Origin: a bacterium
GTDB lineage: Bacteria > Patescibacteriota > Minisyncoccia > Portnoybacterales > GWB1-42-6
DNA length: 64,000 bases
Reading direction: 5' to 3'
NCBI GenBank assembly: GCA_043800535.1
Contig: JAZDMV010000023.1
Span: 111,186 to 175,185, forward strand
The notes beneath the pieces are model-generated. The model was not told where the DNA came from, ran no database searches, and worked only from the letters and a program-made list of their open reading frames with translations. Below are positions 3,059 to 25,407 of the stretch, one piece after another (position 1 is the stretch's first letter; every line of letters begins with the position of its first letter). A program made the translations under genes and the position numbers.

Positions 3059-4178
3059 CGGCTAATACACGCTTAAAATTACGGCAGATGAAACTGACTT
3101 GCTTTTCGGTCAGAAGCGTACTGCTTGGCAGACTGATACCGTGCTGATAGGCATATTCAGCATTGGGAAATTTTTGGTTCATGGCATACGGCTGAAAAGG
3201 TTTTTGCAGGTGCAGCGGCTTAAAAAACGGACGGGAGGCAACCCCTTTCTCTGAGAGCTTCTGGCGAACAGCGTCTATATCTTTATTTATTAACACACTG
3301 AAAAGCCAGCAGACGGCCTCGGCTTTTTTATCATTTGAAAGCTGAAAAGTAATGCTAGGGCAATTGGCCAGCAATTTTTCATAAAGCAATTTCATCGTCT
3401 TGCGCGCCTTAAGAAATTTCTGGAATCTTTCAAATTGAGCGCAACCAACAGCCGCTTGAAGATTCGTCATCCTGTAATTGTAGCCAACCACTTCGTGGTC
3501 ATAAACGCCCCGCGAACGCATTCCATGGTTCTTTAAAATGGCCATTTTTTCGTATAGTTCCTGGCTATCGGAAAGACAAACTCCGCCTTCGCCTGTTGTC
3601 AAAATTTTATTACCGTAAAAAGAAAAACAGCTGACTTCGCCAAAGTTGCCGACCGGTTTGCCACCAAAAAAGGCGCCGTGCGATTCAGCTGCATCTTCTA
3701 TCAAAAAGATCTTATGCGCTTTACACCAATGAACAATATAATCGTAATCGCATGGCATACCGTAAGTATCAACTGCTATCAATGCTTTAGTCCTCTTGGT
3801 CAATTTTTTATCCAATTCTTTTACGTCAAGATTCCAGTCGTTTTTATTGATATCGACAAAAACCAGCTTTGCGCCGCAATGGATGACAACCGCGGCCGGC
3901 GCGGCAAAAGTAAAAACTGGCACAATGACTTCGTCCCCTGGCCCAATACCCAGGGCCAGCAGGGCCAGATGCAAAGCCGTAGTTCCGCTTGAACAGCTTA
4001 ACGCAAATTTACGCCCAAAATTTTTGGCGGCCAAAACCTCAAACCTGTCAATATATTTTCCGGCCGAAGAAACTCTGCCTTCATTTTTTATCGCATCAAT
4101 CAGATATTTTACCTCGTTGCCTGAAAGGTCCGGTGCGGCCACTGGTATTTTTTTCATATTTTTATTTGTGCTTAGCAA
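3051..4178 (-). CDS. DegT/DnrJ/EryC1/StrS family PLP-dependent sugar aminotransferase
   Basis: FSFYGNKILTTGEGGV contains the conserved PLP-lysine motif. 375 aa. Overlaps its neighbours by 8 and 17 nt. Confidence 0.85.
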   Translation of the reverse strand: MLSTNKNMKKIPVAAPDLSGNEVKYLIDAIKNEGRVSSAGKYIDRFEVLAAKNFGRKFALSCSSGTTALHLALLALGIGPGDEVIVPVFTFAAPAAVVIHCGAKLVFVDINKNDWNLDVKELDKKLTKRTKALIAVDTYGMPCDYDYIVHWCKAHKIFLIEDAAESHGAFFGGKPVGNFGEVSCFSFYGNKILTTGEGGVCLSDSQELYEKMAILKNHGMRSRGVYDHEVVGYNYRMTNLQAAVGCAQFERFQKFLKARKTMKLLYEKLLANCPSITFQLSNDKKAEAVCWLFSVLINKDIDAVRQKLSEKGVASRPFFKPLHLQKPFQPYAMNQKFPNAEYAYQHGISLPSSTLLTEKQVSFICRNFKRVLADE

Positions 4179-4989
4179 TTATCGTCATGCTTTCCAATTC
4201 TCCTTCACGCTGAATACCCCTGAATTTTCCGCTGGGGAAAATATCAATTATTGATAAACCGACCTTATTTAATATTTTTTTTATTGACCTCTCTGTAAAA
4301 TGCCAGGTATGGTCAACTAAAGATAACCAAGGTCCTTGAGCACTCATTTTAGGAATCCGAATAACAAAAATTCCGTCTTGAGCCAAAAGTGGTTTTATTT
4401 TTTTAATAAACGATGATGGATTCTGAACGTGCTCAAGAAGGCTGTACATCGCGATAACATCGTAACGACTCTTTCTCAAAGAGTTGGTAAAAGAACCTTG
4501 CGGAGGAGAAAAAACCACTTTCAGCCCTTTTTTTTGACAAATTTTTATCGCTTCTTTTGAAAATTCAACGCCATCGGTTGTCTTAAAACCTTTTTCTTTG
4601 GCCGCTATCAAGGTGTGGCCGTAAGCGCAGCCAACCTCTAAAATCGACTCTGGATTCTTTTTGTATTTTAAAATTTCTTCTACCCTTATCTTGGCGATGG
4701 CCGTTGATTTTTCGTCGCTAACCGTTAACCCATACATATCGTCCGTACCTTTAAAATAAGAGGGGTGGTTATAGAGGCTGTCCAGATATTCTGGGCCTGG
4801 CTGAGGGAAAAGGAATAATAAATCATCAGCGACACAATGCCTGATCCTGTAAGTCTCTGCGTTGATGCTGAAAATAAATCTATCCGCTGTTTTATTTTTT
4901 CCGCGACAAAGGCAACAGCGCACAAAATGGCTGTCTTGAGATTTCAGCCACGGGTATTTTAAATTTAATTGGGGAAGATTTTTTTTCAT
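4162..4989 (-). CDS. Class I SAM-dependent methyltransferase (Cys-rich N-terminus)
   Basis: SAM-binding motif I ILEVGCAYGHTL. An acidic motif follows. The N-terminus carries a CCLC...C...C cluster. Confidence 0.7.
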   Translation of the reverse strand: MKKNLPQLNLKYPWLKSQDSHFVRCCLCRGKNKTADRFIFSINAETYRIRHCVADDLLFLFPQPGPEYLDSLYNHPSYFKGTDDMYGLTVSDEKSTAIAKIRVEEILKYKKNPESILEVGCAYGHTLIAAKEKGFKTTDGVEFSKEAIKICQKKGLKVVFSPPQGSFTNSLRKSRYDVIAMYSLLEHVQNPSSFIKKIKPLLAQDGIFVIRIPKMSAQGPWLSLVDHTWHFTERSIKKILNKVGLSIIDIFPSGKFRGIQREGELESMTIIAKHK

Positions 4990-6248
4990 TTCTGATTAAG
5001 CAGCTTTAATATTTCTCCGTACAGCAAGGCCGCTGTATTTTTTATATCAAATAAGGTCTTTGCCTTCGCAATATTGTTCTCTCTGAATACTTTCCTTTCT
5101 TCATCGCTCAAATGCCTCGTTTTTTCCAAGGCGTCGGCTATAGCCTGCCTATCGCCCAAAGGCACCAGAAAGCCGTTCTTTCCGTTTTCAATCGCTTCTT
5201 TGATGCCGCCGACGTCATAAGCGACAATCGGCAAACCAATAGACATTGCTTCTTTCATCGCCATGCCCATACACTGACGAATAGTGGTAGCTGTCACGCA
5301 GAAACAATCCATTGCCGAATAAAGCCGCGCCAAAGTTTCTTCAGTTAAGCCCTGAAATATAAATAATGAATCTAAGGGAAAATTCATTTCCTTGGCGTGT
5401 TTCCACATTTCTTCTGATGACCCCATTCCGCACAAAATAATAGCCATTTCTTTTAATTTTTCTGGTGCCAATTTCAATAAGGCCTCAAAAATATGTTCAT
5501 GTCCTTTTCGCATTGTCAGGGCCCCTACTGACATAACTAAAAATTTATCGTCCGGCAAATTAAACTCCTTCCTCGCGGCTCGCTTATCATTGATCATCTG
5601 CCCGTTAAAAATATCAAAATTCACACCGCTGTAAACTATCCTTATTTTGTCTGGATTTATTGAATACTTTCTCGGACCTTCGGTGCAGTGTTCGCTCGGC
5701 GGCACAACAAGGTCAACCCCGTTTACCAAATAGTTCCATAATGCCGCTTCGTCCTTGTATTGAAGCTCTGCATAATTTTCCAAAATGACCGGCAGCTTAT
5801 GTCGTTTTGCGATTTTCAAGGCGACCAGGCTTTGCAGACCGGCAGTCTCTGTAATGATGATGTCAGGCTTGATACTTTTGATGTTCTGATCCAGATATAC
5901 GGCGCGCCCGGCACAATAAAGAAATCTGGCAAAAATAAATTCCCGAGATAATTTCAATTGTGAATATAACGCCTGAATGAATACACCCGGACCGACAAGA
6001 AAATTTTTAAGCACATACCACAATTTATCAATAATGTCCGGCGTCTTTAAAAAATCATAAAAATACTGCGCTCCTGCTTCAAGGTCTTCTTCCATCTCAT
6101 GCTTTTGCCGGATATGGATAAAAACCTGCGCGCCGTAAGTATTCCATATCTTTGCGTGCAGAAGACAGCGTTTAATAATCCCGCCATAGGGCGGTGGCAA
6201 GCTTTCTCCGTTATCGCCGGTGATCAGAATCTTCATCTGATTATGCAT
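4986..6248 (-). CDS. Glycosyltransferase family 4
   Basis: C-terminal GT-B motif MKEAMSIGLPIVAYDVGGIKEAIENGKNGFLV. 420 aa. Confidence 0.8.
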   Translation of the reverse strand: MHNQMKILITGDNGESLPPPYGGIIKRCLLHAKIWNTYGAQVFIHIRQKHEMEEDLEAGAQYFYDFLKTPDIIDKLWYVLKNFLVGPGVFIQALYSQLKLSREFIFARFLYCAGRAVYLDQNIKSIKPDIIITETAGLQSLVALKIAKRHKLPVILENYAELQYKDEAALWNYLVNGVDLVVPPSEHCTEGPRKYSINPDKIRIVYSGVNFDIFNGQMINDKRAARKEFNLPDDKFLVMSVGALTMRKGHEHIFEALLKLAPEKLKEMAIILCGMGSSEEMWKHAKEMNFPLDSLFIFQGLTEETLARLYSAMDCFCVTATTIRQCMGMAMKEAMSIGLPIVAYDVGGIKEAIENGKNGFLVPLGDRQAIADALEKTRHLSDEERKVFRENNIAKAKTLFDIKNTAALLYGEILKLLNQK

Positions 6249-7498: not shown

Positions 7499-8899
7499 TC
7501 ATATCCTCTGATAAACTTTGTAAACGCCAAATTCTTTGAGTAGGGCGTATTTTTTATCCAAAACATCCTGATATTGCACGGCATATTCGTCGCCTTTCCA
7601 CAAAACTATAAGTTCGGGCAATTTGTCATCTGAAAACGAAAGCGGATTCTCCCCTATCTGGCGGACGTCGGAAATGACGTGATATTTTTTTTCGGGCGGG
7701 ATAAACGCCGCCACCTGAGAAAGATTAATGATGCCGACGCTCTGGGCGGAGCGGCTGTTCACGAATGAAGACACCTCCTGGGGCCTGGTTGAATAAGCGA
7801 TATCTGAAAAAAAGAACAGCTGGACAACCTGAACTGAAATTAAAATGCCGCAAAAGACCAGTGCCTGCCACTTCTTAAAGATAAGTAAAAAAGAGGGGTA
7901 AATCAAAATAAGCGTTAAAAGCTCCAGGGCAAAAAGATATCTGAACCAGCCGGGGCTGCGCAAAAAATAAATAATAACAAGCGCGCCATAAATGCAGAAA
8001 AATAAAAAGGATTTCTGCCATATTTCCGGGATCGCTTTCCTGTGTCTGACAAAAGCGAAAACAGCCGCAAAGATCAAAAGAGAAAAATAGATCAGCGTGG
8101 TTTGCGAAAAGAACCCGGAAACATTATTCAAAAAATTAGTCGTCAGCGAAGGTGAATCAATGAACGGATTCTGATAAAGCTTATAAATATTTATCCAGCC
8201 GCCCACGGAAAAGAAATCCGGAATGATGAAAATAAAATATAAAAGCACGGGTAAAAAGCCGCCTGCCGCAAATTTAACTATTTTAAAAATTATATCCTTG
8301 CGAAAAAATAAAACATAGATTAAAAAAACCAGGGGTAAAGCGTGATAAATTGAGGGCTTGGCGGCCAAAGCCAGGCCGAAAAACAACCCAACCAACCAAT
8401 AATTCTCTCTTTTTATCAGATAATACAAACCCAGAAGCAAAAAGACAAAGCCCGGCACCTCTCCGGTCACGGGCCGGCCAATGCCAAAAAAAGAAGCGAA
8501 AGTGACGCATAATAATAAAGCATAAATAGCCGCCGGCTTGCCAAAAAAAGACCGCGTGACAAAATAAATCGTTGCTAGGGCGGCCAGGAGCCACAAAATC
8601 ATAAAGATCCTGGCCTGATCCCAGCCGAATCCAAAAATGGAGAAAAATCCCGCCAGAGGGACCATGGCCGGATAATTGCTTGTGACCAGAGTATAGGAAG
8701 CATTTGAAAATATCCCGGGAGCGGTTTGGATGTCCAGTTTGCCAAATAAAGAAAAATTTTGCGCCGCCTCAATATTAAAAGCTTCGTCAGGCCAGATGCT
8801 TGGTTTGGTCGCCAAGTTGTTCAGAGAAAAAACGACAACAAAAGCAAAAACCATTGTCAGTATCAGGACCTCATAATTTTTTTTAAAAAAATCAGCCAT
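7499..8899 (-). CDS. Polytopic membrane glycosyltransferase, GT-C fold (ArnT/PMT, GT39/GT83-like)
   Basis: More than 10 predicted TM helices. DE-type motif IWPDEAF lies in the first loop. AAKPSIYHALPL resembles the ArnT KPPL region. Confidence 0.5.
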   Translation of the reverse strand: MADFFKKNYEVLILTMVFAFVVVFSLNNLATKPSIWPDEAFNIEAAQNFSLFGKLDIQTAPGIFSNASYTLVTSNYPAMVPLAGFFSIFGFGWDQARIFMILWLLAALATIYFVTRSFFGKPAAIYALLLCVTFASFFGIGRPVTGEVPGFVFLLLGLYYLIKRENYWLVGLFFGLALAAKPSIYHALPLVFLIYVLFFRKDIIFKIVKFAAGGFLPVLLYFIFIIPDFFSVGGWINIYKLYQNPFIDSPSLTTNFLNNVSGFFSQTTLIYFSLLIFAAVFAFVRHRKAIPEIWQKSFLFFCIYGALVIIYFLRSPGWFRYLFALELLTLILIYPSFLLIFKKWQALVFCGILISVQVVQLFFFSDIAYSTRPQEVSSFVNSRSAQSVGIINLSQVAAFIPPEKKYHVISDVRQIGENPLSFSDDKLPELIVLWKGDEYAVQYQDVLDKKYALLKEFGVYKVYQRI

Positions 8900-9554
8900 T
8901 TTCTTTTAAAAACAAAATTGAACAATACCAAGAAAAGTTAATCGGCAGCCATCTGGGAAAAATTATCATTTTTTCAACTCTAAAATGTTTTTTTGCCGCC
9001 TCAATGATGTCTTTGTGGCTAGAAGGATGCATCGCTCTGGGGTTCCATTCTTTTTTGCTCCAGCCAAATGTCTGGAAAAAAAAATCCGTTATCATATTGC
9101 GCACGGGAAAGGAAATCACTGCTTTACCGCTTTTTTGCATAACCCTTTTGACTTCAAGAAACGCCTTATCGAGATCATTCGGAAAAATGTGCTCAAAAAT
9201 GCTAACTGCCACCACTCCGTCAAAAAACTCATCCTGATATGGTAATTCAAGAACCGAGCCCTGCAAAAGTTCCGCTTTGACCCCCATTTTTGCAAGCATC
9301 GCCTCAACATCAGGAATTTTTTCGTGGATATCTATTCCAAAAAGATTTTGAGAGCGGCGCGACAATTCCGGCAGAAGGATACCGCTACCAAAGCCGATCT
9401 CCAGCAAGTTTTTATAACTCTTGCCCAAAAGATCCAAGGTGTTCATCAGCCGCTTTTTAAAAACGTAGCCGACCAGAGGAACATAATGATAAAAAATCGG
9501 GTCTCCGGCGTCCGTTTTTAACATTTTTCTCCGCGGCGGCAATAGCATTTTCAT
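8892..9554 (-). CDS. Class I SAM-dependent methyltransferase
   Basis: Motif I LLEIGFGSGILL. Post-I acidic residue in FGIDIHE. Confidence 0.7.
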   Translation of the reverse strand: MKMLLPPRRKMLKTDAGDPIFYHYVPLVGYVFKKRLMNTLDLLGKSYKNLLEIGFGSGILLPELSRRSQNLFGIDIHEKIPDVEAMLAKMGVKAELLQGSVLELPYQDEFFDGVVAVSIFEHIFPNDLDKAFLEVKRVMQKSGKAVISFPVRNMITDFFFQTFGWSKKEWNPRAMHPSSHKDIIEAAKKHFRVEKMIIFPRWLPINFSWYCSILFLKENG

Positions 9555-9561
9555 AATATAT

Positions 9562-10299
9562 TTAGTATCGGGCTCTGATTATCAACGAACCAGAGGCCTC
9601 TCTAAGCACAGGGATTTTTTCCAAAGCCAATCCCAGTCCTGAAACTATTTTTATTAAAAACTGAGGGACAATAGGATGTAAAAAATCATAAGGCAGAACT
9701 TCAACATCTGAAAAATCTTGCCGTCTCAAAAATTTTGCCAACTTCCAGCGTAAAAAAGCTGTCTCTTCGGGCGAATTGAGCAACCAGCGGCCAAAAAATC
9801 TGATATTTCTTTCCAAAAAGATCTCCGGGTTCAGCATATTGGGCTCGGAAAAAAAGATTTTTCCTCCTCTTTTGAGCACCCGCCTTATCTCACGAAAAGT
9901 TTTTTCCATATCAATATGGTGCAAGATCGAATTCCCGACTACCGCATCAAAGGATTGGTCCAAAAAAGGCAGTCCACCCACGTCAGCTACGGCAAAAACA
10001 ACATTGGGGAGCGCCAGGGTTTTTTCCGCGAATCTGATTGATTCGCCTGAAATATCAATGGCCGCAATCTGGGCTGATGGCAGAACAGGGGGAAGATATT
10101 TGGTCAGGTCGCCTATGCCGCAGCCTATTTCCAATATCTTGAGCTGCCCGCCGCTCCCAAGATAATCCGCGATTAAGTTTGCCCGACGAATTAATCTCTG
10201 CTTGCCAGCTTCGGTCTGATGCCCCCACCAGCTTATTCCCTTATTTGTAACTAAATAGTCAAAATGCTCTGCTTCTTTAATTTTTGAATGTTCAATCAT
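9562..10299 (-). CDS. Class I SAM-dependent methyltransferase
   Basis: Motif I ILEIGCGIGDLT. AIDISGESI follows. Motif region DAVVGNSILHH. Confidence 0.75.
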   Translation of the reverse strand: MIEHSKIKEAEHFDYLVTNKGISWWGHQTEAGKQRLIRRANLIADYLGSGGQLKILEIGCGIGDLTKYLPPVLPSAQIAAIDISGESIRFAEKTLALPNVVFAVADVGGLPFLDQSFDAVVGNSILHHIDMEKTFREIRRVLKRGGKIFFSEPNMLNPEIFLERNIRFFGRWLLNSPEETAFLRWKLAKFLRRQDFSDVEVLPYDFLHPIVPQFLIKIVSGLGLALEKIPVLREASGSLIIRARY

Positions 10300-10315
10300 A
10301 AATTATTAATGTCTC

Positions 10316-10687
10316 TTATGGCTTTGTCAATAAAAAGATCCCGCCGATGATCAGGGCCACTCCTAAAATCTGCGCAAAATTAAGACTTTCTTTAAAAATG
10401 ACAGAAGAGGCAATAACGATCGCAATCAAATTTAAGCTGGCTGTAATGGGGTATATAATATTTAAGTTAAGCCGGGAAAGAGTTAAAAGCCACGTTACAA
10501 AACCAAAAACCAAAAGAGCTAATCCTCCCAAAATATAGAAGTTCTTGAAAATTAACAAAAAGGCATTCCATAAATTGGCGAACGATATATCCATCGCCCC
10601 TTGGACTGCCATCCCTTTTTTCAAAAGCAGCTCCGCAGCGGCCAAAAATATAATGTTTGCGGCGACTAGAACATATAATGGTATCAT
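10316..10687 (-). CDS. Small 4-TM SMR/EamA-like membrane protein (ArnE/ArnF-like candidate lipid-linked sugar flippase subunit)
   Basis: 123 aa with four hydrophobic helices. Its size and topology match ArnE/ArnF. It sits between a radical SAM gene and methyltransferase genes. Confidence 0.5.
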   Translation of the reverse strand: MIPLYVLVAANIIFLAAAELLLKKGMAVQGAMDISFANLWNAFLLIFKNFYILGGLALLVFGFVTWLLTLSRLNLNIIYPITASLNLIAIVIASSVIFKESLNFAQILGVALIIGGIFLLTKP

Positions 10688-10695
10688 GATTTGGT

Positions 10696-12099
10696 TTAAT
10701 TATTGCTTAATTTAATAAATCTTAACAAGGCCAGAAGCGATCTAATATCCCGCTTTAGCTCGTCCCAGTTCCTTAATCTCATCAAACGTCGCAGAACAAG
10801 CTTTGGCCGGAAAAAGAATTTTTTATTAGCTAGACGGTAGTAATATTGCAGCTTCTCCCGGCTAAGCCCGGGCAGTTCCAGGACGGCATTTGATAAATTA
10901 TAATCATCCCAGTTAAAACTTTTGATGCATCCTCTTTCTTTTGCCCATTCAAAAAGATAGGTTCCGGGAAATGGAATGGCAACATTAAATTGGGCAATAT
11001 CAAGGTCCAGTTTCAAGGCAAAATCAATTGTTCTTTTTACGGTCTCTTCCGTTTCTCCCTGGTTGCCGAACATAAAAGACGCTCTTGTTTCTATGCCTAT
11101 TTTCCTTGCTGTCTTGATTATTTTTTCCACCCTTTCAAGAGAGATCTTTTTGTTTATAGCTTTTAGGATCTCCTCATCGCCCGACTCGACCCCGAATAAT
11201 ATCTGATAGCAGCCGGCTTTTTTCATTAATTTCAGAAGATCTTCGTCAACATAATCAACCCTGGTGATACAGGACCAGCTGATGTCTATTTTCTCATCAA
11301 TGAGCAGATTGCAAAACTCAACTACAACATCCTTAAAAAGAGTAAAGGTATCGTCCACTATTGATATTCCTTTTATGCCGTAATCCCGCTGCAGCGTTTT
11401 GATCTCATCCACAATATTCCTGGCCGATCTTTTCCTGAGCACGCCCCGGAAACAGCGATAACAAAAGGTACATCTTCCCGGGCAGCCCCTGGTGGCAAAA
11501 ATTGTCATGGCTGGCAATTTTTTGTAATTGCCGGGCGCCGGATAATATTTTTTTATCGGCAGCAAATGGTAGGCAGGATGAGGAATATCGTCCAGGTTTT
11601 TGATCAGAGGCCTCAATTCGTTTCTAATGGTGCGGCCGTTTTCCTTGTAGCATATGCCAAGGATCTCCTTTGGAGATTTTCCTGCCACTATTTCTTTTAT
11701 CGTTTCCTCTCCCTCGTCTATCACCACAAAGTCCACATACGAATGAGATATCACTTCTTCGGGCATAATCGAAGGATGCACGCCTCCCATGACAATTTTG
11801 GCGCTGGGAAATTCTTTTTTTGCAATTTTTGCAATTCTCAACGCATTATTGATCAGGGGGGTGGTGGCGGTCAGGCCAATAAAATCCAAACTATCATATC
11901 TTTTTAAAACCTGGTTCATATCATTGACCGTGTAATGTTCGGCCGAACAGTCAAGATAAAAAACTTTGTGATCCTCTTTTTCCAAGACAGCCGCTATTAA
12001 AGCCAGTCCCAAACTTGGCCAGCAGCCGGCAATTTGCTTCCATAAATTCCTGTCCTCCCCTATGACCCAGGGCGGATTTATCAATAATATCTTTTTCAT
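10696..12099 (-). CDS. B12-binding domain radical SAM protein (paralog of 18962-20383)
   Basis: KKILLINPPWVIGEDRNLWKQIAGCWPSLGLALIAAVLE. CxxxCxxC motif GCPGRCTFC. The likely start is MKKILL at 12099 (the six-frame ORF extends to 12144). Confidence 0.85.
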   Translation of the reverse strand: MKKILLINPPWVIGEDRNLWKQIAGCWPSLGLALIAAVLEKEDHKVFYLDCSAEHYTVNDMNQVLKRYDSLDFIGLTATTPLINNALRIAKIAKKEFPSAKIVMGGVHPSIMPEEVISHSYVDFVVIDEGEETIKEIVAGKSPKEILGICYKENGRTIRNELRPLIKNLDDIPHPAYHLLPIKKYYPAPGNYKKLPAMTIFATRGCPGRCTFCYRCFRGVLRKRSARNIVDEIKTLQRDYGIKGISIVDDTFTLFKDVVVEFCNLLIDEKIDISWSCITRVDYVDEDLLKLMKKAGCYQILFGVESGDEEILKAINKKISLERVEKIIKTARKIGIETRASFMFGNQGETEETVKRTIDFALKLDLDIAQFNVAIPFPGTYLFEWAKERGCIKSFNWDDYNLSNAVLELPGLSREKLQYYYRLANKKFFFRPKLVLRRLMRLRNWDELKRDIRSLLALLRFIKLSNN

Positions 12100-12119
12100 T
12101 TTAACCAAGTTTCTGAATG

Positions 12120-12776
12120 TTATATCCACTTGAACATCTTCCAAAAAATTTTCAACCCATCCTTGAAAGCGTTTACCCGCGAAACATCGGCATACCGCGC
12201 TTTTTCAAAACAAGGCACTTCACCGAACTTATAGCCGGCTTTTTTGGCTTTGGCTAAAAATTCAATGCATAAAGAAAAATCATCGGCCTTCAGATCCAAA
12301 GAGTTAAAAACTTCTTTTTTTGCCGCTACAAAAAAATACAAACTGTCAGAAACCTTTGTGCCGTAAAAAAGATTTGTCAAAAAAGTGAATATTTTATTGC
12401 CTATGCTCCGGATGAAAGTGTCGTCTTCGGTACCTGCGCCTGGCATATAACGGGAGCCCATGGCAATATCGTATCCCTCCGCCAACTTGGCCACCAACCT
12501 TGGGATGTCCTTGGGATTTTGAGAATAATCAGCATCCAGAGTCACAACAATATCGCCGGACGCATTTTTGAAACCATGCCGATAGCCGTCGCCAAATCCT
12601 TTTCCCGGCTGGACCAAAACCCGGCACCCAAGAGATTCTGCGATTTGGGCTGTTCTGTCTTTGGAATGACCGTCAACCACCAATATCTCATCCACCGAAT
12701 CTCTGGGAATATTTTTAATGGTCTGGGCAATACATTTTTCTTCGTTCAAGGCCGCAATTAGGGCTGTGATTTTCAT
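12120..12776 (-). CDS. Glycosyltransferase family 2, polyprenyl-phosphate sugar synthase-like (DPM1/ArnC/GtrB-like)
   Basis: ITALIAALNEEKCIAQTI...VVDGHSKDRT...TLDADYSQNP carries the DxD-type GT-A signature. The short 218-aa form is typical of lipid-phosphate GT2 enzymes. Confidence 0.8.
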   Translation of the reverse strand: MKITALIAALNEEKCIAQTIKNIPRDSVDEILVVDGHSKDRTAQIAESLGCRVLVQPGKGFGDGYRHGFKNASGDIVVTLDADYSQNPKDIPRLVAKLAEGYDIAMGSRYMPGAGTEDDTFIRSIGNKIFTFLTNLFYGTKVSDSLYFFVAAKKEVFNSLDLKADDFSLCIEFLAKAKKAGYKFGEVPCFEKARYADVSRVNAFKDGLKIFWKMFKWI

Positions 12777-13852
12777 AGATAGAAGTTCTTTATTTTATTA
12801 CAAATTAATTTTACCTGATTTTCGGTCAAAGAAACAGAGGACGGCAGCCAAAGGCCGGTTTTCGCGATTTTTTCGGCTATCGGGTAGCGGCCTGGCTTTT
12901 TATAGGCGGGCTGGCTGTGAAGCGCCGGATATATCGGCCGGGAACCTATCTGCTCGTCTTTTAAAAAAGCGATTAATTTTTTCCGGTCAGGCACGAAAAT
13001 ATCCGCAAACCAGGGCGTTGTCTGTTTTAGATCCGTCCCAATGAATTTTATCTGCTTTACGCCGGCCAAAAGCTTTCTATATAAAGCAAATATTTTTTTC
13101 TTTTTGGTCATACGCGCTTTTATTTTTTTCATCTGCGCCACGCCAAAAACCGCCTGCAGATCGGTAAATTTAAAATTCCAGCCGACCTCTTCATAAAAAT
13201 CTGCCCCGCCTTGCAGGCGGCCAAAATCTTTAATCCGTTTAATTTTTTCAAAGATTTTTACGTCGTTTGTCACAAGCGCCCCGCCCTGGCCGGTTGTTAT
13301 GATCTTTGGCGCGCTGAAAGAAAAACTACCGATAACTCCAAAAGTGCCCAGGTGCCGTCCGCGATAAAAAGACCCCAACGACTGAGCCGCGTCCTCAATG
13401 AGATAAACGTGCTTTTTTGAACAAAGCTTTTTTAATTTCGCCAGTTCTCCCGCCCGTCCGTTCAAAGAAACATGCATCACCGCTTTTGTCTTTTTGTTTA
13501 TGGCCTCCGTAACCTTTTCAACGTCAAGGCACAAACTTTTTTCTTCAATATCAACAAAAACCGGTTTGGCGCCCGCCAGAATGACCGCATTAGGAGTGGC
13601 AGCCATTGTGATGTCTGGCACAATGACCTCGTCGCCTGAACCAACGCCCAAAGCACGAAGCGCGACAAATAAGCTGACTGTACCATTGGAAACAACCGAA
13701 CAATACCTAGCGCCACAAAAACGCGCAATCATTTCTTCAAATTCGCGCGTTTTTTTAAATTCCATCAGCCAGCCGCCGGAATTTAAATAATCGCTGACTG
13801 CTTTTATTTCTTCCCGGCCGTAGGATGGCTCAGTCTGGTGAATAAACTTCAT
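12773..13852 (-). CDS. DegT/DnrJ/EryC1/StrS family sugar aminotransferase
   Basis: FSFSAPKIITTGQGGALV is the PLP-Lys motif. 359 aa. ATGA overlap with the GT2 gene. Confidence 0.85.
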   Translation of the reverse strand: MKFIHQTEPSYGREEIKAVSDYLNSGGWLMEFKKTREFEEMIARFCGARYCSVVSNGTVSLFVALRALGVGSGDEVIVPDITMAATPNAVILAGAKPVFVDIEEKSLCLDVEKVTEAINKKTKAVMHVSLNGRAGELAKLKKLCSKKHVYLIEDAAQSLGSFYRGRHLGTFGVIGSFSFSAPKIITTGQGGALVTNDVKIFEKIKRIKDFGRLQGGADFYEEVGWNFKFTDLQAVFGVAQMKKIKARMTKKKKIFALYRKLLAGVKQIKFIGTDLKQTTPWFADIFVPDRKKLIAFLKDEQIGSRPIYPALHSQPAYKKPGRYPIAEKIAKTGLWLPSSVSLTENQVKLICNKIKNFYL

Positions 13853-13895
13853 ATGAAATCTTATAGAAAACTAAGCAGCTATGCCGCTCTTATAA

Positions 13896-14282
13896 TTAAA
13901 TCAAAATTTTATCTTCTATAAAAGGGCCATTTTTCGTCTCAACCATTTCTGCGTCTTCCAGGACATGGATCCCATAACCGCCATGCATCAATACAAAAAA
14001 ATCTCCACCAGATAAATAAATGAATTTTAAAAACTTTTTGTCGGGACCGTAGAGATCAAGTTTTATCCTTCCCTTTTTAACCATCAAAAATTCTTGGAGA
14101 CAATCAGTGGTTCTTTTTCTTGGCTTATGCATATGGGCTTTCAAATAAGCACCATTTTTATGCCGCAAGGTCACCACCTGCAGCGGTTCTTTTCCGTCGG
14201 TCAATGGAATAGACCCTTTTGGCAACGCCTTAACCCGAAAACCAATAAGTTTTTTTTTGTAAAATATTTTTTCCATTTTTTC
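13896..14282 (-). CDS. Cupin-fold WxcM/FdtA-like protein (putative NDP-4-keto-6-deoxyhexose 3,4-ketoisomerase)
   Basis: The HxH...E...G...H pattern (KAHMHKP...QEFLMV...GGDFFVLMHGGYGIHVLEDAEMV) resembles FdtA. The start is taken at the internal MEKIFYKK to avoid overlap with the gmd paralog. Confidence 0.45.
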   Translation of the reverse strand, partial: EKMEKIFYKKKLIGFRVKALPKGSIPLTDGKEPLQVVTLRHKNGAYLKAHMHKPRKRTTDCLQEFLMVKKGRIKLDLYGPDKKFLKFIYLSGGDFFVLMHGGYGIHVLEDAEMVETKNGPFIEDKILI

Positions 14283-14289
14283 AATCACC

Positions 14290-15357
14290 TTACATAAACG
14301 CTTTGCGCACCTTAAAATGCTTCCCCAGTAAGGCCTCCTGCTGCGCAATCTTGAAATCTTCTCTTGCCATGAGCTTGGCTAACGCCCTAAACGTCGTTTT
14401 TGGCCGCCAGCCCAAAACTTCTCTTGCTTTTGAAGAATCCCCTTGCAAAAAATCTACTTCAGACGGCCTGAAATAAAGAGGGTCCACTTTTACGACAACT
14501 TTTCCGGTCTTTTTATCAATGCCCTGCTCATTTAACTTTTTGCCCTTCCAGACAATATCCATACCCAGATTCCTGCCGACTTCTTCAACAAATTCCCTGA
14601 CCGTATGGCTTTCCCCGGTTGCCAGCAAAAAATCATCCGGCTTTTTGTGCTGGAGGATCATCCAAATACCCTCAACATAGTCCTTGGAATAACCCCAGTC
14701 CCTTTTTGAGTCCAGATTTCCGAGCTTTAAGACGTCCTGGAGGCCCAGCTTGACCCTTGATAACCCTAATGAAATTTTACGGGTAACAAAGTTAACCCCT
14801 CTCCTTGGCGATTCGTGATTAAAAAGTATGCCGTTGGAGGCAAAAATCCCGTAGCTGTTGCGGTATACTTTTGTTATATAGAAAGCGAACACCTTTGAAC
14901 ATCCGTAAGGAGACTGTGGATTAAAGTAGGTGTCTAAATTTTGCGGCGCGGGAGCTTTTCCAAACATTTCCGAAGAGCTTGCCTGATAGTATCTGGCAGG
15001 CATTTTGAGATTGTGAATTGCCTCCAGCACCCTTAAGGCACCAAGACCCGTTATGTTGCCGGTATATTCTGGCTTTTCAAAACTTATTCCAACGTGGCTT
15101 TGCGAAGCAAGATTATATATCTCGTCTGGCTCAATTTGAGATAAAACTCTATGTAAGCTGGCACTGTCGCTTAAATCTCCATAAACAGTCATAAAGTTCG
15201 GGAATTCGGGATTGTCGTAAAGATGATCAATTCTAAAAGTATTGGGCACACTTGAGCGCCTTTGAATTCCATATACTTTATAGCCCTTTTCCAGCAATAA
15301 TTCGGCCAAATACGAACCATCCTGGCCTGTTATGCCGGTAATTAATGCCTTTTTCAT
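14290..15357 (-). CDS. gmd: GDP-mannose 4,6-dehydratase (second paralog)
   Basis: ALITGITGQDGSYLAELLLEKGYKVYGIQRRSS. YGCSKVF is the YxxxK motif. 355 aa. Confidence 0.9.
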   Translation of the reverse strand: MKKALITGITGQDGSYLAELLLEKGYKVYGIQRRSSVPNTFRIDHLYDNPEFPNFMTVYGDLSDSASLHRVLSQIEPDEIYNLASQSHVGISFEKPEYTGNITGLGALRVLEAIHNLKMPARYYQASSSEMFGKAPAPQNLDTYFNPQSPYGCSKVFAFYITKVYRNSYGIFASNGILFNHESPRRGVNFVTRKISLGLSRVKLGLQDVLKLGNLDSKRDWGYSKDYVEGIWMILQHKKPDDFLLATGESHTVREFVEEVGRNLGMDIVWKGKKLNEQGIDKKTGKVVVKVDPLYFRPSEVDFLQGDSSKAREVLGWRPKTTFRALAKLMAREDFKIAQQEALLGKHFKVRKAFM

Positions 15358-15947: not shown

Positions 15948-17615
15948 TTATTCGCAAACAGTTATTTCTTTTAACTCGTTGTTTGTATTTTCTGTGATGA
16001 TTTCTGTTAATTCTTTATCATAGCCAGCAAAACTGGTAATGCCGTATTTTTTAAAAACCTGCTTAAGCTCGTTTTTAGCGGCCAGCTTTTTGATCGTAGA
16101 GGGCGCAAAATAAATAAAATTTCTGTCCAGATAATAAGCCAGCGCTTCAGGCATTTCAGACGCCCAGCCCACGACCGTCACGCCGTTTTTACCAAATAAA
16201 TTTTTATTTTCTTCATTCCTGGCGAAAGCCAGGATCTGACGTGTCTGGCCAGGATTGGCATATGCCTCGTGAAGATTCCACCAGCTGATCTGAAAAAAGA
16301 AAAATACCAAAACTGCTGTTACGCCCCCCATTATCATTTTCGCGGATTTTTGTTCTAGATCAAAATGTTCCGCCGCCAGTTTGGCGATACGGCTGATGCC
16401 CAACGCCAAAAAAATCGAAGCCGGCAGATTCAAAACTGCCAAATGTGCAAAATTGGAAGTTTTCAAAAACGTCAAAATTGCCAGCCATGAAACGATGAAT
16501 GACAAGCCAAAAACAAACCAATTGTGCTTTTTCTGCCGCCAGAGTTCCTGCCCGCCCAAGAAAATCAAAAGCCAAGAAAAAGCCCCGCCAAAAACAATTA
16601 GAGAAAGAAACAGCCCCTTAAAATACATCCAGGCCGAAAAAGCACGTGTTACAATTTCGCTTTTGAAAAAACCTATGGATACGCCGTAATCCTTAAAGAA
16701 CATTCCGAAATCGCCCCAGAAACTAAACTGTTTTATCAACGAAATTCCCTGATTTTGGACATAAACTTCCCGCAAAAATTCCTGCCTTTTATTATAAAAT
16801 GTGTAAGGGTCAGGAAAAACATAACCATAGATATAAGATGGCTCGTTGGGGCTTTGATTGACTCCCAACATTACTCCAAAATAGGAATTTCCGCCGATCA
16901 AGAAGAAAGGGAACGCCACCAACAGGAACGATAAACCAAACCAGAAACATCTTTGCAGCGCAATTTTCAGGTTTTTCCTCTGCGCCAAAAATTCGAGAAC
17001 TAAAAATGCCGGGAACGCTACTATAAAATTATTCTTTGCCGCGGCTGATAGCCCCAAAAATAATCCGGCCAAGAGCAGATAGATTATTTTTCTGTCTTTC
17101 GGCCAAAAATAAATAAAAGACGCGATCGTCAAAAAAAGATATGCCCACTCCTGCGTGCCGGCCGCGTTAGAAAATGGCAAAGCGTATGGAGCAAGGATCG
17201 CCAAAAATGCCGCCGTGAGCGCTATTTCACGCCTAAAATGTCTGCTCGCGATAAAATATAAAATTACAGCGCAAAGTGAATAAATAAAAAAAGAAACAAA
17301 AATCGGCAGATCGGGATGGAATCCAGTAGTTCTGAATAGTAGACCGTAAAGTAAAAAGGTCAGTTTGTTTCCCAACTCTGCCCCCACTCCCTGCGTTTTT
17401 ACCGCTTCCAGCGATAAAACAGCACCGTTAGCGTTTTCATATGCAAAACTGTTGTTCTCGGACCAATTGCGCGAAACTAAAAGATTAAAATAAGAAGTGC
17501 TGGTAAGGCCAATAGCCCGATACACAAAATAATGCGCAAAAAAACTGAACAAAAAAATAACGGCCACTAAAATAATAACTCTGGCGATTTTATTTTCTTT
17601 AAGAAATTTGTTCAT
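15948..17615 (-). CDS. Polytopic membrane protein, GT-C fold glycosyltransferase-like (ArnT/PMT-like)
   Basis: 555 aa with more than 10 TM helices. An AAKNNF region follows TM. Its topology resembles ArnT/PMT-family transferases. Confidence 0.45.
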   Translation of the reverse strand: MNKFLKENKIARVIILVAVIFLFSFFAHYFVYRAIGLTSTSYFNLLVSRNWSENNSFAYENANGAVLSLEAVKTQGVGAELGNKLTFLLYGLLFRTTGFHPDLPIFVSFFIYSLCAVILYFIASRHFRREIALTAAFLAILAPYALPFSNAAGTQEWAYLFLTIASFIYFWPKDRKIIYLLLAGLFLGLSAAAKNNFIVAFPAFLVLEFLAQRKNLKIALQRCFWFGLSFLLVAFPFFLIGGNSYFGVMLGVNQSPNEPSYIYGYVFPDPYTFYNKRQEFLREVYVQNQGISLIKQFSFWGDFGMFFKDYGVSIGFFKSEIVTRAFSAWMYFKGLFLSLIVFGGAFSWLLIFLGGQELWRQKKHNWFVFGLSFIVSWLAILTFLKTSNFAHLAVLNLPASIFLALGISRIAKLAAEHFDLEQKSAKMIMGGVTAVLVFFFFQISWWNLHEAYANPGQTRQILAFARNEENKNLFGKNGVTVVGWASEMPEALAYYLDRNFIYFAPSTIKKLAAKNELKQVFKKYGITSFAGYDKELTEIITENTNNELKEITVCE

Positions 17616-17619
17616 ACGA

Positions 17620-18978
17620 TTAAAAAAGCCCGATCTTCTCCTTGAATCTTTCCAGATTCAGCAATAGATCGACCAGTCCGTTTAAAAAAATTAAACCTAT
17701 CGCGGCCCACAAAATTTTATTATACGCCCAGGTTTTTATTCTGCCCAGCGCCACCAAAAAATAAGCGGCAAAGATCGCCAAAGCCGGATAAATCTGGAAA
17801 CGGTATCTGGTTTCCACCACCGTCACAAAAACAAGCAAAGAAACACTCAAGGCAAAAACTGCTAGATACGCCAACGCTTCTCGCTGCGTTTCTTTTTTAA
17901 AAAATACTGACTTTATTATTCCGCCAAGTCCCAGAACAAATAAAAAACAAGAAGCCAAAGCAGAAGACAAAACAAATAACATCTGTCCAAGGCCGGTCTG
18001 GTAGAACCAGAATCCCATTGGTCTGGCGACGCTGAAATACTTGCTTATCCTAAAAATCGTCAGTTTTAAAAATTCAGCCGGGTAATCGCGCAAAAATTCC
18101 TTAAACCGCGCTAGCGACTCGCCATTGATGTTTTTCACTTCCTCTGTGGCGGCAAACTGACGCTGTTCGTCCGTCGGCTCTTGTTCGCCGTTGCCGTTGT
18201 GATAATTGCCTATCCAGAAATTAAAATTGCCCGCGGCGCCAAACGGCATAAATTCTTGATACACCGCATAATTTCTGACTGTCCAGGGCGTAAAAACCGC
18301 TGCTAAAATTATCAAAAACAAAATTCCCTGGCGCCACAGTTTTCCTCGATAAAAATAAAAAATAATAACCGGAGTGAATAAAAGAACTGTCGGCCGCGCC
18401 AGAACCGCCAGCCCGGAAGCCAAAGCTAAACAAGCAACCAGCCAATAACTTTTCTGCCGGAAGTGCCAAAAGAAAAAATAAAGCATCAGGCACAATAAAA
18501 AAAGATACAATGTTTCGCTCATCAGCATCGCCGAAATTTCTATCAGGTCCGGATAAAATCCGAAAATTGCCGATGCCCACAATCCTATTGTTTTTTTCCT
18601 TTCGGAATTGAAAAATATTAAAAGTACCGTAAGATAGACCAGCCACGCCGATAAAGCGTGAACTACCGCCTGCAAAATCCAGACCGGCCGCAAGTCATGC
18701 CCGAAAATTTTATATGCACCCGCCAAAAAATACTGATACAGCGGCCCGACTCTGGCAATCGCGTAGTCATGCGCCAAATCTTTGTCCAAATCTTCCCGAT
18801 ATCCCTGGCCGCTGACGATATTGAAAGCGATCTTATCATAAGCCCGCGCGTCCACCAGAGGCTTGATCTTAAAATGGAAAGAATAAAATAAGCTGGCGCA
18901 AAAAGACAGCAACAAAATTATGAGCAAAATCTTGTTGTTTTTTAAAAAATCCTTAAGCTCGCTATTTAAGATTTTCAT
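17620..18978 (-). CDS. Polytopic membrane protein, GT-C fold glycosyltransferase-like (ArnT/PMT-like)
   Basis: 452 aa with multiple TM helices. The first-loop acidic motif is DARAYDKIAF. Its start overlaps the radical SAM gene stop by 17 nt. Confidence 0.45.
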   Translation of the reverse strand: MKILNSELKDFLKNNKILLIILLLSFCASLFYSFHFKIKPLVDARAYDKIAFNIVSGQGYREDLDKDLAHDYAIARVGPLYQYFLAGAYKIFGHDLRPVWILQAVVHALSAWLVYLTVLLIFFNSERKKTIGLWASAIFGFYPDLIEISAMLMSETLYLFLLCLMLYFFFWHFRQKSYWLVACLALASGLAVLARPTVLLFTPVIIFYFYRGKLWRQGILFLIILAAVFTPWTVRNYAVYQEFMPFGAAGNFNFWIGNYHNGNGEQEPTDEQRQFAATEEVKNINGESLARFKEFLRDYPAEFLKLTIFRISKYFSVARPMGFWFYQTGLGQMLFVLSSALASCFLFVLGLGGIIKSVFFKKETQREALAYLAVFALSVSLLVFVTVVETRYRFQIYPALAIFAAYFLVALGRIKTWAYNKILWAAIGLIFLNGLVDLLLNLERFKEKIGLF

Positions 18979-20383
18979 AGATAAATTTAAGCAGGACCAG
19001 TCCGCCTTTGAATTCCTGCTTGAACTGCTCCCAGCTTCTTATATGTGCCAGACGCCGCAAAATTATTTTTGGCCGGAAATAAAATTTTCGGTGCGCCAGC
19101 TCGTAATAATGCTGGAGCGTTTTTGCGTTTAGGCCCGGCACCTCCCAGACCACGTTTGACATGCTATAATCGTCCCAGTCAAAGCTTTTTACATATCCTT
19201 TCTTCCTGGCCCAATCAAAAAGTTCGGTTCCTGGATACGCTGTGGCGATGTTAAACTGCACCTCGTCAGGATCAAGCTTAATCGCAAAATCAATCGTCTT
19301 TTTTATCGTTTCTTCCGTCTCCCCCTGATTGCCGAACATGAACGAAGCGCGCGTTTCAATCCCCACGCGCCTGGCCGCCCTTACAACCTGCCTGACCTGG
19401 TCCAAAGAGATCCGCTTATTGATATTTTCCAAAATTTGCTCGTCAGCCGATTCCACTCCAAATAAAATCAGATGGCAGCCGGCCTGTTTCATCAGCGACA
19501 AAAGCTCCTCGTCAACCCGATCAACCCTGGTAAAACACGACCAGGTTATGTCAATTCCCTCTTCGATTATTGTACCACAGAATTCCCTGACCACATCTTT
19601 GAACAAAGTAAACGTGTCATCGTAAAAAGCCACTTCCTTTATGCCATAATTTTTCTGCAGGATTTTAATTTCGTTTAAAATATCGGCCGCCGATCGCTTT
19701 CTGACAATTCCTCGAAACGCGCGGTGGCAAAAGGTACATCTTCCCGGACACCCCCGCGTGGCAAACAATATCATGGCCGGCAGGCGTTTGTAACTGCCAA
19801 TTGCCGGATAATATTTTCCCATCGGCAGAAGATGATAAGATGGCGGCGGAATGGTATCCAGATCACTTATCAACGGCCGTGATTCGTTTTTAATAACCTG
19901 GCCGCTATCTTTAAAAACCAATCCTAAAATTTCTTTGGGATCCCGGCCAACAACTAATTCTTTCATCGTTTCTTCTCCCTCGTCAACAACCACAAAATCA
20001 ACATTCTCGTCCGCGATGACTTCTTCTGGCATAACCGAAGGATGAACACCGCCCAGCACTATTTTCGCTTCCGGAAAAACTCTTCTGGCTTGCCGCGCGA
20101 TAGCCAAAGCGTTATTGATCATCGGCGTTGTGGCGGTCAGGCCGACAAAATCGGGCTTTTCGCCCAGGCTTTTAAGAAATTCACCGGTTTCGCCAACAGT
20201 GTATCGCTCGGCCGTGCAGTCAAGGTATCGAACAATGTGCCCTCCCTGTTCCAAGACCGCCGCAATATAAGCCAAACCTAAACTCGGCCAGCAACTGGCT
20301 ACTTGCTCCCACAAATTCTTATTTTCGCCTATAACCCAGGGTGGATTAATGAGTAAAACTTTTTTTGCCGAGCCAATATTCAT
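18962..20383 (-). CDS. B12-binding domain radical SAM protein (paralog of 10696-12099)
   Basis: KKVLLINPPWVIGENKNLWEQVASCWPSLGLAYIAAVLE. Cluster motif GCPGRCTFC. High similarity to 10696-12099 along the whole length. Confidence 0.85.
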   Translation of the reverse strand: MNIGSAKKVLLINPPWVIGENKNLWEQVASCWPSLGLAYIAAVLEQGGHIVRYLDCTAERYTVGETGEFLKSLGEKPDFVGLTATTPMINNALAIARQARRVFPEAKIVLGGVHPSVMPEEVIADENVDFVVVDEGEETMKELVVGRDPKEILGLVFKDSGQVIKNESRPLISDLDTIPPPSYHLLPMGKYYPAIGSYKRLPAMILFATRGCPGRCTFCHRAFRGIVRKRSAADILNEIKILQKNYGIKEVAFYDDTFTLFKDVVREFCGTIIEEGIDITWSCFTRVDRVDEELLSLMKQAGCHLILFGVESADEQILENINKRISLDQVRQVVRAARRVGIETRASFMFGNQGETEETIKKTIDFAIKLDPDEVQFNIATAYPGTELFDWARKKGYVKSFDWDDYSMSNVVWEVPGLNAKTLQHYYELAHRKFYFRPKIILRRLAHIRSWEQFKQEFKGGLVLLKFIYENLK

Positions 20384-25403: not shown

Positions 25404-25407
25404 CATC

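Follow-up and report, generated by a model that had tools for sequence, protein, structure and literature searches.

Three-component extracytoplasmic glycosylation systems such as GtrA/GtrB/GtrC, CsbB/GtcA/YfhO and the pentofuranose systems with GT136 cluster the genes of a polyprenyl-phosphate (polyprenyl-P) sugar synthase, a small flippase and a GT-C glycosyltransferase, and they gain or lose auxiliary enzymes that act on the lipid-linked sugar and thereby diversify it, among them the SDR epimerase ORF13 and DprE1/E2 (PMC11127046). Such systems are a general bacterial and archaeal route to surface-glycan decoration. The Arn pathway of E. coli and Salmonella (PmrHFIJKLM) follows a similar logic, with an aminotransferase, a family 2 glycosyltransferase (GT2) of the ArnC type, a modification made on the lipid, a flippase of the SMR family (ArnE/F) and a GT-C enzyme (ArnT). 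On a lipid-linked donor, deformylation by ArnD and redox epimerisation by DprE1/E2 or ORF13 are the tailoring steps known so far. In the HpnI/HpnK/HpnJ system, a GT2 places an (amino)sugar on a lipid and an adjoining radical S-adenosylmethionine (rSAM) enzyme with a B12-binding domain remodels the lipid-linked sugar; the substrate of HpnJ is hopanoid-linked glucosamine, and the ring contraction is known from genetics only (PMC9204698, PMC13459092).

Here we describe a 64,000-nucleotide stretch of contig JAZDMV010000023.1 (assembly GCA_043800535.1; hereafter the window), in which a B12-domain rSAM enzyme encoded at 10696-12099 sits in an operon (7499-15357) together with a GT2, an SMR-type membrane protein and a GT-C. 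An earlier account made from the letters of this DNA (the sequence-only reading) had taken the operon for an Arn-like lipid-linked aminosugar pathway in which the rSAM occupies the place of ArnD. Judged from sequence and predicted fold, the backbone of the operon appears to be a three-component extracytoplasmic glycosylation system. Its rSAM comes from a clade, marked by a W[ST]C motif, that is the habitual partner of polyprenyl-P-sugar-type GT2s and of GT-Cs in many phyla. The reading that we prefer, and that we hold to be about equally likely to be right or wrong, is that the rSAM remodels a polyprenyl-P-linked sugar after the GT2 has acted and before the sugar is flipped.

The operon comprises nine minus-strand open reading frames (ORFs), all found where the sequence-only reading had put them, with inter-gene gaps of -8 to +43 nt (Table 1). 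It forms one piece of a co-directional cell-envelope glycan island of ~35 kb (447-36521), and the grouping of GT2, rSAM and GT-C genes that we follow here is found three times in the window, at 7499-12776 (within the operon, module 1), at 15948-21072 (module 2) and at 25970-29226 (module 3). The arrangement first remarked on at 7499-15357 is thus real but not unique. Modules 2 and 3 have no adjoining nucleotide-sugar genes, and in module 2 the rSAM and GT2 genes overlap by 4 nt. The three GT2-partnered rSAMs are each other's closest paralogues: those of modules 1 and 2 are 64% identical and that of module 3 is 44-46% identical to the other two, while the remaining three B12-domain rSAMs of the window share 25-35% identity with them.

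Table 1 Genes of the operon at 7499-15357 and the two further modules of the window (aa, amino acids; TM, transmembrane)
Feature	Coordinates	Strand	Basis
Gmd, GDP-mannose 4,6-dehydratase, 355 aa	14290-15357	-	TIGR01472 489 bits (cutoff 415); PF16363 440 bits
Small cupin-like protein, 126 aa from ATG at 14276 (ORF reaches 14348)	13896-14276	-	WbuC cupin match below threshold
DegT-family pyridoxal phosphate-dependent sugar aminotransferase, 359 aa	12773-13852	-	PF01041 335 bits
Polyprenyl-phosphate sugar synthase-type GT2, 218 aa	12120-12776	-	PF00535 97 bits
B12-binding-domain rSAM, 467 aa from ATG at 12099 (TTG ORF to 12144)	10696-12099	-	PF02310 86 bits; PF04055 110 bits
SMR/DMT-type membrane protein, ~4 TM helices, 123 aa	10316-10687	-	NCBIfam ArnE/ArnF below cutoff
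Class I SAM methyltransferase, 245 aa	9562-10299	-	Methyltransf_11/25/31 68-78 bits
Class I SAM methyltransferase, 220 aa	8892-9554	-	Methyltransf_11 60 bits
GT-C (PMT_2 / GT39-83-like), 466 aa, ~11 TM helices	7499-8899	-	PF13231 39.5 bits (cutoff 26.1)
Module 2: GT2 20380-21072 (230 aa), rSAM 18962-20383, GT-C 17620-18978, GT-C 15948-17615	15948-21072	-	Pfam
Module 3: rSAM 27775-29226, GT2 27070-27765, GT-C 25970-27073, methyltransferase 25408-25965	25408-29226	-	Pfam

Databases contain more than 1,800 homologues of the clade, whose gene neighbourhoods were surveyed in one scan of 185,579 species genomes, which gave 80 loci whose ORFs were classified with hidden Markov models (HMMs) built from the window proteins. 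At 17 non-redundant loci the rSAM is orthologue-level (at least 440 bits), and a GT2 lies no more than two genes away at 12 of them, a GT-C at 11 and both at nine. The corresponding counts for 64 loci with more distant B12-domain rSAMs are 10, 7 and 2 (Fisher p ~2e-5), a comparison to be read with the caution that raw ORFs and home-made HMMs may overlook divergent GT-Cs among the 64. Represented in the set of 17 are Patescibacteria, Endomicrobiales/Elusimicrobia, Thermoguttaceae, Desulfobaccales, Hydrogenedentes, Acidobacteriota, Chloroflexota and Methanosarcinales; loci of the clade also include a DPANN-like archaeon, and one further contig, carrying archaeal ribosomal, RpoN and Rpr2 genes, has the order SMR-SMR-GT2-rSAM-GT-C. 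The gap between GT2 and rSAM genes is 0, -4, -4 and -34 nt at four loci and, measured from the longest ORF, +33 to +217 nt at three others. The two closest homologues of the rSAM at 10696-12099 (70% and 68% identical) stand in the order GT2(230)-rSAM-GT-C(450), in one case preceded by Gmd and SDR genes, and the order of module 2 is repeated at loci L092 and L093. GT2s beside rSAM orthologues are of the type found in modules 2 and 3 (GT2_20380 and GT2_27070, named after their first coordinates; 45-73% identity), and GT2_20380 itself is 51-73% identical to those at L001, L003, L005, L007, L008, L009 and L011. The conserved unit is therefore GT2 (~230 aa)-rSAM-GT-C, independent of aminosugar genes, and it is a more general and better supported discovery than the locus at 7499-15357.

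These counts also bear on an improbable explanation in which the rSAM has no specific link to the GT2 or the GT-C and is a tailoring enzyme of the island, acting on an undecaprenyl-diphosphate-linked oligosaccharide or another cytoplasmic intermediate, with adjacency reflecting island architecture. Six rSAM paralogues do lie in this one island, arrays of 5-9 occur elsewhere (L020, L031, L076), and the arrangement of module 1 is so far unique. That explanation sits poorly with the enrichment of adjoining GT2 and GT-C genes, which is confined to the orthologue-level clade and does not extend to other B12-domain rSAMs of similar islands, and with the persistence of the adjacency over bacterial and archaeal phyla, the genes abutting or overlapping in several.

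Beside the surveyed units stand several variants. At L012 (11478-12947), L015 (2901-4436) and L016 (12148-13560), the rSAM-adjoining GT2 is fused to a class I methyltransferase domain, in the order GT2-methyltransferase in Desulfobaccales and Hydrogenedentes and methyltransferase-GT2 in a Parcubacteria metagenome-assembled genome (MAG); the fusions suggest that methyltransferases act near the GT2 step. L021 (6585-12020, Acidobacteriota) carries a YfhO-type GT-C, a MraY/WecA-type phosphoglycosyltransferase, an rSAM (42% identical, without W[ST]C) and a methyltransferase, and this rSAM thus appears tied to a non-homologous route to a lipid-linked monosaccharide. Arrays of 4-9 B12-domain rSAM paralogues within 20 kb occur at L020, L022, L031, L040 and L076 in Bacteroidales, Deltaproteobacteria, Bathyarchaeia and Myxococcales MAGs, often with a GT-C or DegT gene nearby, and amount to large expansions of this class of enzymes. 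Plasmid pDCAR1 of Solidesulfovibrio carbinolicus DSM 3852 (L094, 7816-11986) encodes a glycosyltransferase (359 aa, ~3 TM helices), an rSAM without W[ST]C that is 35% identical to the window clade, and a hypothetical protein of 501 aa with seven or more TM helices; sugar epimerase and acyltransferase genes adjoin. This set, in a cultured organism, could serve as a tractable relative of the module.

The rSAM of module 1 most likely starts at the ATG at 12099, since its homologues (>100) align only from there, covering 96% of the TTG-started ORF. It combines a CxxxCxxC core, here CPGRCTFC with all three Cys invariant, with an N-terminal Rossmann B12-binding domain, the architecture of class B rSAM enzymes, and its AlphaFold2 model (predicted local distance difference test score, pLDDT, 91.6) consists of a five-strand Rossmann domain and a barrel. 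The structure nearest to the model is AprD4 (PDB 6fd2; TM-score 0.77, 22-23% identity), followed by MgmA, TsrM, OxsB, CysS and TokK. AprD4 is a radical SAM diol dehydratase that acts on an aminosugar and works with a partner reductase, AprD3.

Among NCBIfam models the rSAM scores best against HpnJ (269 bits, full length) and BchE (222 bits), both below cutoff, with AprD4 at 123 bits. The three GT2-partnered rSAMs of the window reach 269, 275 and 215 bits against HpnJ, all short of the equivalog cutoff of 577.6 bits (TIGR03471), and the other three reach 133-148 bits. A bona fide hpnJ, on a Paraburkholderia plasmid, overlaps the GT2 gene hpnI by 4 nt, and its product is 32% identical to the rSAM over 95% of the length. 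The Paraburkholderia protein and the GT2-partnered clade have in common an invariant W-S-C motif on a barrel strand, which reads WTC in the rSAM at 27775-29226 and whose Cys is residue 277 in the 467-aa rSAM of module 1, and a C-terminal tail that is basic, F[YF]FRP…W…G…FF; these signatures, like the full-length alignment, are this analysis's own and come from no curated definition. The other three window rSAMs, BchE and the Solidesulfovibrio rSAM have no W[ST]C motif, which in the sampled sequences tracks with a GT2 partner. Over their last 50 residues the GT2-partnered rSAMs have a net charge of +7 to +11, as against 0 in the Gmd-linked rSAM at 1493-3058, and such a tail would be compatible with peripheral membrane binding.

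Among characterised systems the nearest precedent is HpnI/HpnJ, where a B12-domain rSAM remodels the lipid-linked aminosugar set by an adjoining GT2. MoeK5, which acts on a saccharide linked to a phosphoglycerate lipid, is a second. Like GenK/GenD1 of gentamicin, MoeK5 of moenomycin is a class B rSAM that methylates unactivated carbons of sugars, and these enzymes differ from the present case in belonging to secondary-metabolite pathways whose products are not GT-C donors. The sequence-only reading had known of no class B rSAM that modifies a lipid-linked monosaccharide before transfer; HpnJ, working on hopanoid-linked glucosamine, narrows that statement (PMC9204698, PMC13459092), which still stands for polyprenyl-phosphate donors, for which we found no case. 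A literature search with incomplete full-text coverage returned no description of an rSAM in a three-component, GT-C or polyprenyl-phosphate-donor system. The present locus also departs from the HpnJ case in its partner GT2, which is DPMS-like (dolichyl-phosphate mannose synthase) and not HpnI-like, in its lipid, which would be polyprenyl phosphate, and in its product, which would be passed on to a GT-C.

The likeness to HpnJ admits a different account, to which we give little credence, in which the GT2 and the rSAM build a modified glycolipid head group, for example a cyclitol formed by ring contraction as with HpnI/HpnJ or calditol synthase (Cds), and the GT-Cs serve other substrates. The common W-S-C motif and the rSAM-GT2 pairing, as in hpnJ-hpnI, fit this account, ring contraction of lipid-linked hexoses has been proposed for both HpnJ and Cds (PMC13459092), and a carbocycle formed on phosphate by ring contraction would, on chemical reasoning, serve a GT-C poorly as donor. 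It does not explain why the window GT2s match dolichyl-phosphate (Dol-P) and undecaprenyl-phosphate (Und-P) glycosyltransferases and have no BLAST match to HpnI, or why the GT-C ranks second in conservation among the neighbours, with start and stop codons that often overlap. Moreover, at L091 the SMR protein and the GT-C known from module 1 make up a complete three-component system. No hopanoid genes were seen in the window.

The three backbone proteins of module 1 each resemble their counterparts in three-component systems. GT2_12120 (12120-12776) has a DAD motif, no predicted TM helix and an amphipathic C-terminal helix (hydrophobic moment 0.64). Its best family models are AglJ (126 bits), Dol-P-hexose transferase, PpgS and ArnC, and a search of PDB sequences finds Pyrococcus furiosus DPMS (5mlz, 1e-20), ArnC (9bhc/8vxh, 1e-11) and GtrB (5ekp), placing it in the DPM1/GtrB/ArnC class and bearing out the proposed ArnC/GtrB likeness. 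Against E. coli ArnC residues 9-223 it is 26% identical (BLASTP 2e-18), and the alignment ends where the membrane helices of ArnC start. A processive synthase, the alternative that the sequence-only reading had named, was rejected on the grounds of its length (218 aa), the lack of a TM helix and the lack of a QxxRW motif. GT2_12120 is thus probably a DPMS/ArnC-type polyprenyl-phosphate glycosyltransferase.

The GT-C has a small C-terminal beta domain and a near-invariant D38-E39 pair (at least 90% conserved) in its first outer loop. The top 20 PDB matches found by Foldseek for its AlphaFold2 model (pLDDT 94.6, from a 45-sequence alignment) are all GT-C enzymes that use polyprenyl-linked donors, among them ALG12, ArnT (5f15/5ezm), STT3, PglB, AglB and ALG9 (probability 1.0, TM-score 0.55-0.65), which agrees with the GT-C fold expected of it, and D38-E39 aligns with the PDET motif of E. 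coli ArnT. By sequence it is remote from that enzyme (hhalign probability only 27%), and it has no match in NCBIfam or among PDB sequences. The SMR protein, with only six database homologues, scores 36.7 bits against ArnE and 35.9 bits against ArnF, followed by the Qac SMR models, and has no match among PDB sequences. Compared as a family profile, it resembles E. coli ArnE with an hhalign probability of 97.5% (E 6e-12; 71% for ArnF), as had been suggested for it, and is a candidate flippase for the lipid-linked sugar, one of the small multi-TM types (GtrA, SMR/ArnE-F or MATE) of three-component systems.

The two methyltransferases have generic PDB matches, which for the one at 9562-10299 include RebM and a glucose O-methyltransferase, and O- and N-methylation are indistinguishable on that basis. 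The enzyme at 9562-10299 is, weakly, the nearest of the window methyltransferases to the methyltransferase domain of the GT2 fusions at L012, L015 and L016.

At the head of the operon, Gmd and a DegT aminotransferase point to the sugar. The DegT protein has the fold and the catalytic Lys (SFSAPK) of its family, and its best solved relatives, which act on GDP- or other nucleoside diphosphate (NDP)-linked 4(3)-keto-6-deoxyhexoses, are the sugar aminotransferase 7b0m, GDP-perosamine synthase (3bn1/3dr4, 2e-51) and QdtB (6e-50); its gene overlaps the start of the GT2 gene by 4 nt. It is reasonable to infer that Gmd and this perosamine-synthase-like enzyme make a GDP-derived amino-6-deoxyhexose, as the sequence-only reading had supposed. 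Its description of the cupin as FdtA-like did not hold up: the protein, probably starting at the ATG at 14276, has no match in Pfam, FdtA (PF05523) included, even at E = 10, and none among PDB sequences, and its sole match is a sub-threshold one to the WbuC cupin of NCBIfam (26.4 bits vs cutoff 42). An HxH...H pattern is seen in its sequence, and it is possibly a sugar keto-isomerase or epimerase.

The operon therefore follows the Arn logic, from the aminotransferase through the ArnC-type GT2 and a proposed modification on the lipid to the candidate SMR flippase and the GT-C, without being a member of that pathway. No ORF in 447-36521 contains a formyltransferase or PF01522 domain, as ArnA and ArnD would; the GT-C shares the fold of ArnT and is not its orthologue; there is one SMR gene where Arn has the E/F pair; and the sugar would derive from GDP-mannose, by way of Gmd, and not from UDP-GlcA. 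A true Arn pathway was rejected on these grounds. Lipid A is not expected in a bacterium of the Patescibacteria type, and the acceptor is probably a wall or surface glycan. With three-component systems the operon shares all of the clustered parts, with the differences that its auxiliary enzyme is a B12-domain rSAM and that its GT2 ends without the TM helices that GtrB and ArnC carry at their C-termini. The rSAM tailoring step would be analogous in logic to ArnD, DprE1/E2 and ORF13.

Two contexts orthologous to module 1 were found, and neither includes an rSAM: DegT-GT2-SMR-GT-C at L091 and DegT-GT2-methyltransferase-GT-C at L087. The shared genes agree closely in sequence, with 73-74% identity for DegT, 61-65% for the GT2 and 46-49% for the GT-C in both, 57% for the SMR protein, which lies between GT2 and GT-C at L091, and 66% for the methyltransferase at 8892-9554, which takes that position at L087 and belongs to the conserved backbone. 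The methyltransferase at 9562-10299 is absent from both, as is the rSAM. Since these backbone orthologues lack it, the rSAM appears to be an add-on, and module 1 reads as a hybrid, an ordinary three-component aminosugar system that gained the rSAM and the methyltransferase at 9562-10299 from the canonical GT2-rSAM-GT-C lineage present twice more in the island. Its presence in the window and absence from L087 and L091 match the gain or loss of auxiliary epimerases described for three-component systems (PMC11127046). Next to the GT2/GT-C pairs of rSAM-less relatives of module 1, L087 (5925-7142) and L088 (13032-14261) encode a TylC3-like NDP-hexose C-methyltransferase (Methyltransf_13/14), at L088 together with a weak FdtA-type cupin, a hint that these loci arrive at C-methyl-branched sugars without radical chemistry.

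An unlikely alternative has the rSAM work ahead of the GT2, on a soluble GDP-6-deoxyhexose or GDP-amino-sugar, by C-methylation or rearrangement in the manner of Fom3 or OxsB on their nucleotide-linked substrates. The substrate of Fom3 is nucleotide-linked. Gmd and SDR genes recur just upstream of GT2-rSAM pairs (L092, L005 and the window), the position of the rSAM at 1493-3058 between Gmd and DegT makes it probable that some island rSAMs work at the nucleotide level, and the TylC3-like C-methyltransferase accompanies the rSAM-less module at L087 and L088. In sequence similarity networks, moreover, two methylases, Fom3 and MoeK5, fall into a cluster with HpnJ, which is not a methylase (PMC9204698). 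What tells more strongly for the lipid stage is that the tightest and most conserved neighbours of the rSAM are the GT2 and the GT-C rather than nucleotide-sugar enzymes, of which modules 2 and 3 have none adjacent, and that the rSAM neighbour at L021 is a phosphoglycosyltransferase. The basic, hydrophobic C-terminal tail is missing from the Gmd-linked paralogue, and HpnJ, the best NCBIfam model, works after glycosyl transfer to the lipid. We infer that action on the lipid-linked sugar is the best reading.

Several observations weigh against action on the polyprenyl-P-linked sugar or soften it, beyond the caution already attached to the survey counts. What the analysis shows is gene content, family and fold, and the synteny counts; the substrate and the chemistry are read from synteny and distant homology, and the order of steps and the membrane association are proposals. 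All NCBIfam scores of the rSAM fall far below the family cutoffs and BLAST finds it about equally similar to BchE and HpnJ, on which grounds orthology to HpnJ was rejected. Cobalamin use by the rSAM is not assured, its nearest structure, AprD4, having been set apart in a review as 'unrelated' to B12-dependent enzymes (PMC12931638). Five of the 17 orthologue-level loci have no detectable adjoining GT2, some of them on short contigs. The usual GT2 partner of the rSAM is of another lineage, only 28-29% identical to GT2_12120, as the other two window GT2s also are, which are 45% identical to each other; and the exact order with the rSAM, an aminosugar-type GT2 such as GT2_12120 beside it, was not found in any other genome among the relatives, so that the conservation of gene order that the sequence-only reading had looked to did not materialise.

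If the rSAM nonetheless acts at the lipid stage, module 1 would work as follows. Gmd, the cupin and the DegT aminotransferase would make a GDP-linked amino-6-deoxyhexose, which GT2_12120 would load onto polyprenyl phosphate at the inner membrane face. The rSAM, bound peripherally to the membrane through its basic C-terminal tail, would remodel the polyprenyl-P-sugar at the cytoplasmic face, and the class I methyltransferases would add O- or N-methyl groups at the nucleotide or the lipid stage. The ArnE-like SMR protein would then flip the lipid-linked sugar, and the GT-C would move it to an extracytoplasmic acceptor.

Granted a lipid-linked substrate, C-methylation, which the sequence-only reading had named as a possibility, has no more support than a skeletal rearrangement or epimerisation of the HpnJ kind that uses the conserved Cys; we rate each as possible, neither as probable in itself, and regard other chemistry, such as deoxygenation, as only slightly less likely. 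A rearrangement or epimerisation in need of a hydrogen-atom donor would be well served by the Cys that the clade has in common with HpnJ. A full ring contraction of the HpnJ type would, on chemical reasoning, give a carbocyclic phosphate and thus a poor donor for the GT-C.

On a broader scale, it is conceivable, if a little short of an even chance, that widespread and undescribed three-component systems in Patescibacteria, in DPANN and other archaea, in Elusimicrobiota, Planctomycetota and others use an HpnJ-related W[ST]C rSAM to remodel a polyprenyl-P monosaccharide at the inner membrane face, whether by C-methyl branching, epimerisation or skeletal rearrangement, the product of which a GT-C installs on the surface. 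If so, the radical SAM step would be a new class of chemistry at the stage of the lipid-linked donor, and unusual surface sugars would be predicted in some of the least-studied lineages (the candidate phyla radiation and DPANN). It would also give a large clade of class B rSAMs a biological context and a tractable substrate hypothesis, and could illuminate the still unproven HpnJ reaction. The six B12-domain rSAMs in one island of a reduced-genome organism imply a strong reliance on imported cobalamin for envelope synthesis.

The names of homologues (Portnoybacteria, Staskawiczbacteria, "Patescibacteria group") and the accessory domains point to a Patescibacteria source for the window. Besides the six rSAMs, the island encodes three short GT2s, four PMT_2 GT-Cs, several methyltransferases, a second Gmd/DegT set and GT4 glycosyltransferases, five on the minus strand plus one, divergent, at 35301-36521. 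The GC content of the island stays at 41-44% throughout, and a compositional anomaly indicative of horizontal transfer was accordingly rejected. The second sugar set (447-6248, minus strand) consists of Gmd (447-1451), a B12-domain rSAM (1493-3058), DegT (3051-4178), a class I methyltransferase and a GT4. Its rSAM, lying between dehydratase and aminotransferase and lacking both the basic C-terminal tail and W[ST]C, may have a nucleotide sugar as its substrate. Two further B12-domain rSAM paralogues, at 23973-25478 and 29229-30695, are 31% identical to each other and stand beside methyltransferases and GT4s.

Amid the GT4 genes, 31842-32372 encodes a DUF6580 membrane protein (176 aa, ~5 TM helices) with a weak likeness to the S component of an energy-coupling factor transporter (4hzu_S, E 0.001); the domain occurs again in the related island at L093 (2326-2862), and the protein could take part in vitamin (B12?) uptake or be a membrane protein related to glycans. 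The product of a UDP-glucose dehydrogenase ORF at 34512-35315 (267 aa) is missing the initial ~70 positions of its N-terminal domain profile, and the ORF runs into the next SDR gene (33569-34534); its equivalent at L001 (868-2853) is a single 661-aa fusion of UDP-glucose dehydrogenase and epimerase, and the window copy may be split or truncated.

Beyond the island lie a 1272-aa LTD/fn3 surface protein (37193-41011) and, adjoining it, two tandem Wzy_C proteins, O-antigen ligase/polymerase-like with C-terminal TPR repeats (42397-47046), which are candidates for the acceptor and for the polymerase/ligase, respectively, of the island glycan. A 1157-aa ORF at 47835-51308 has no Pfam match; local GC there is 0.52 vs ~0.43 elsewhere, and the sign of the GC skew flips.

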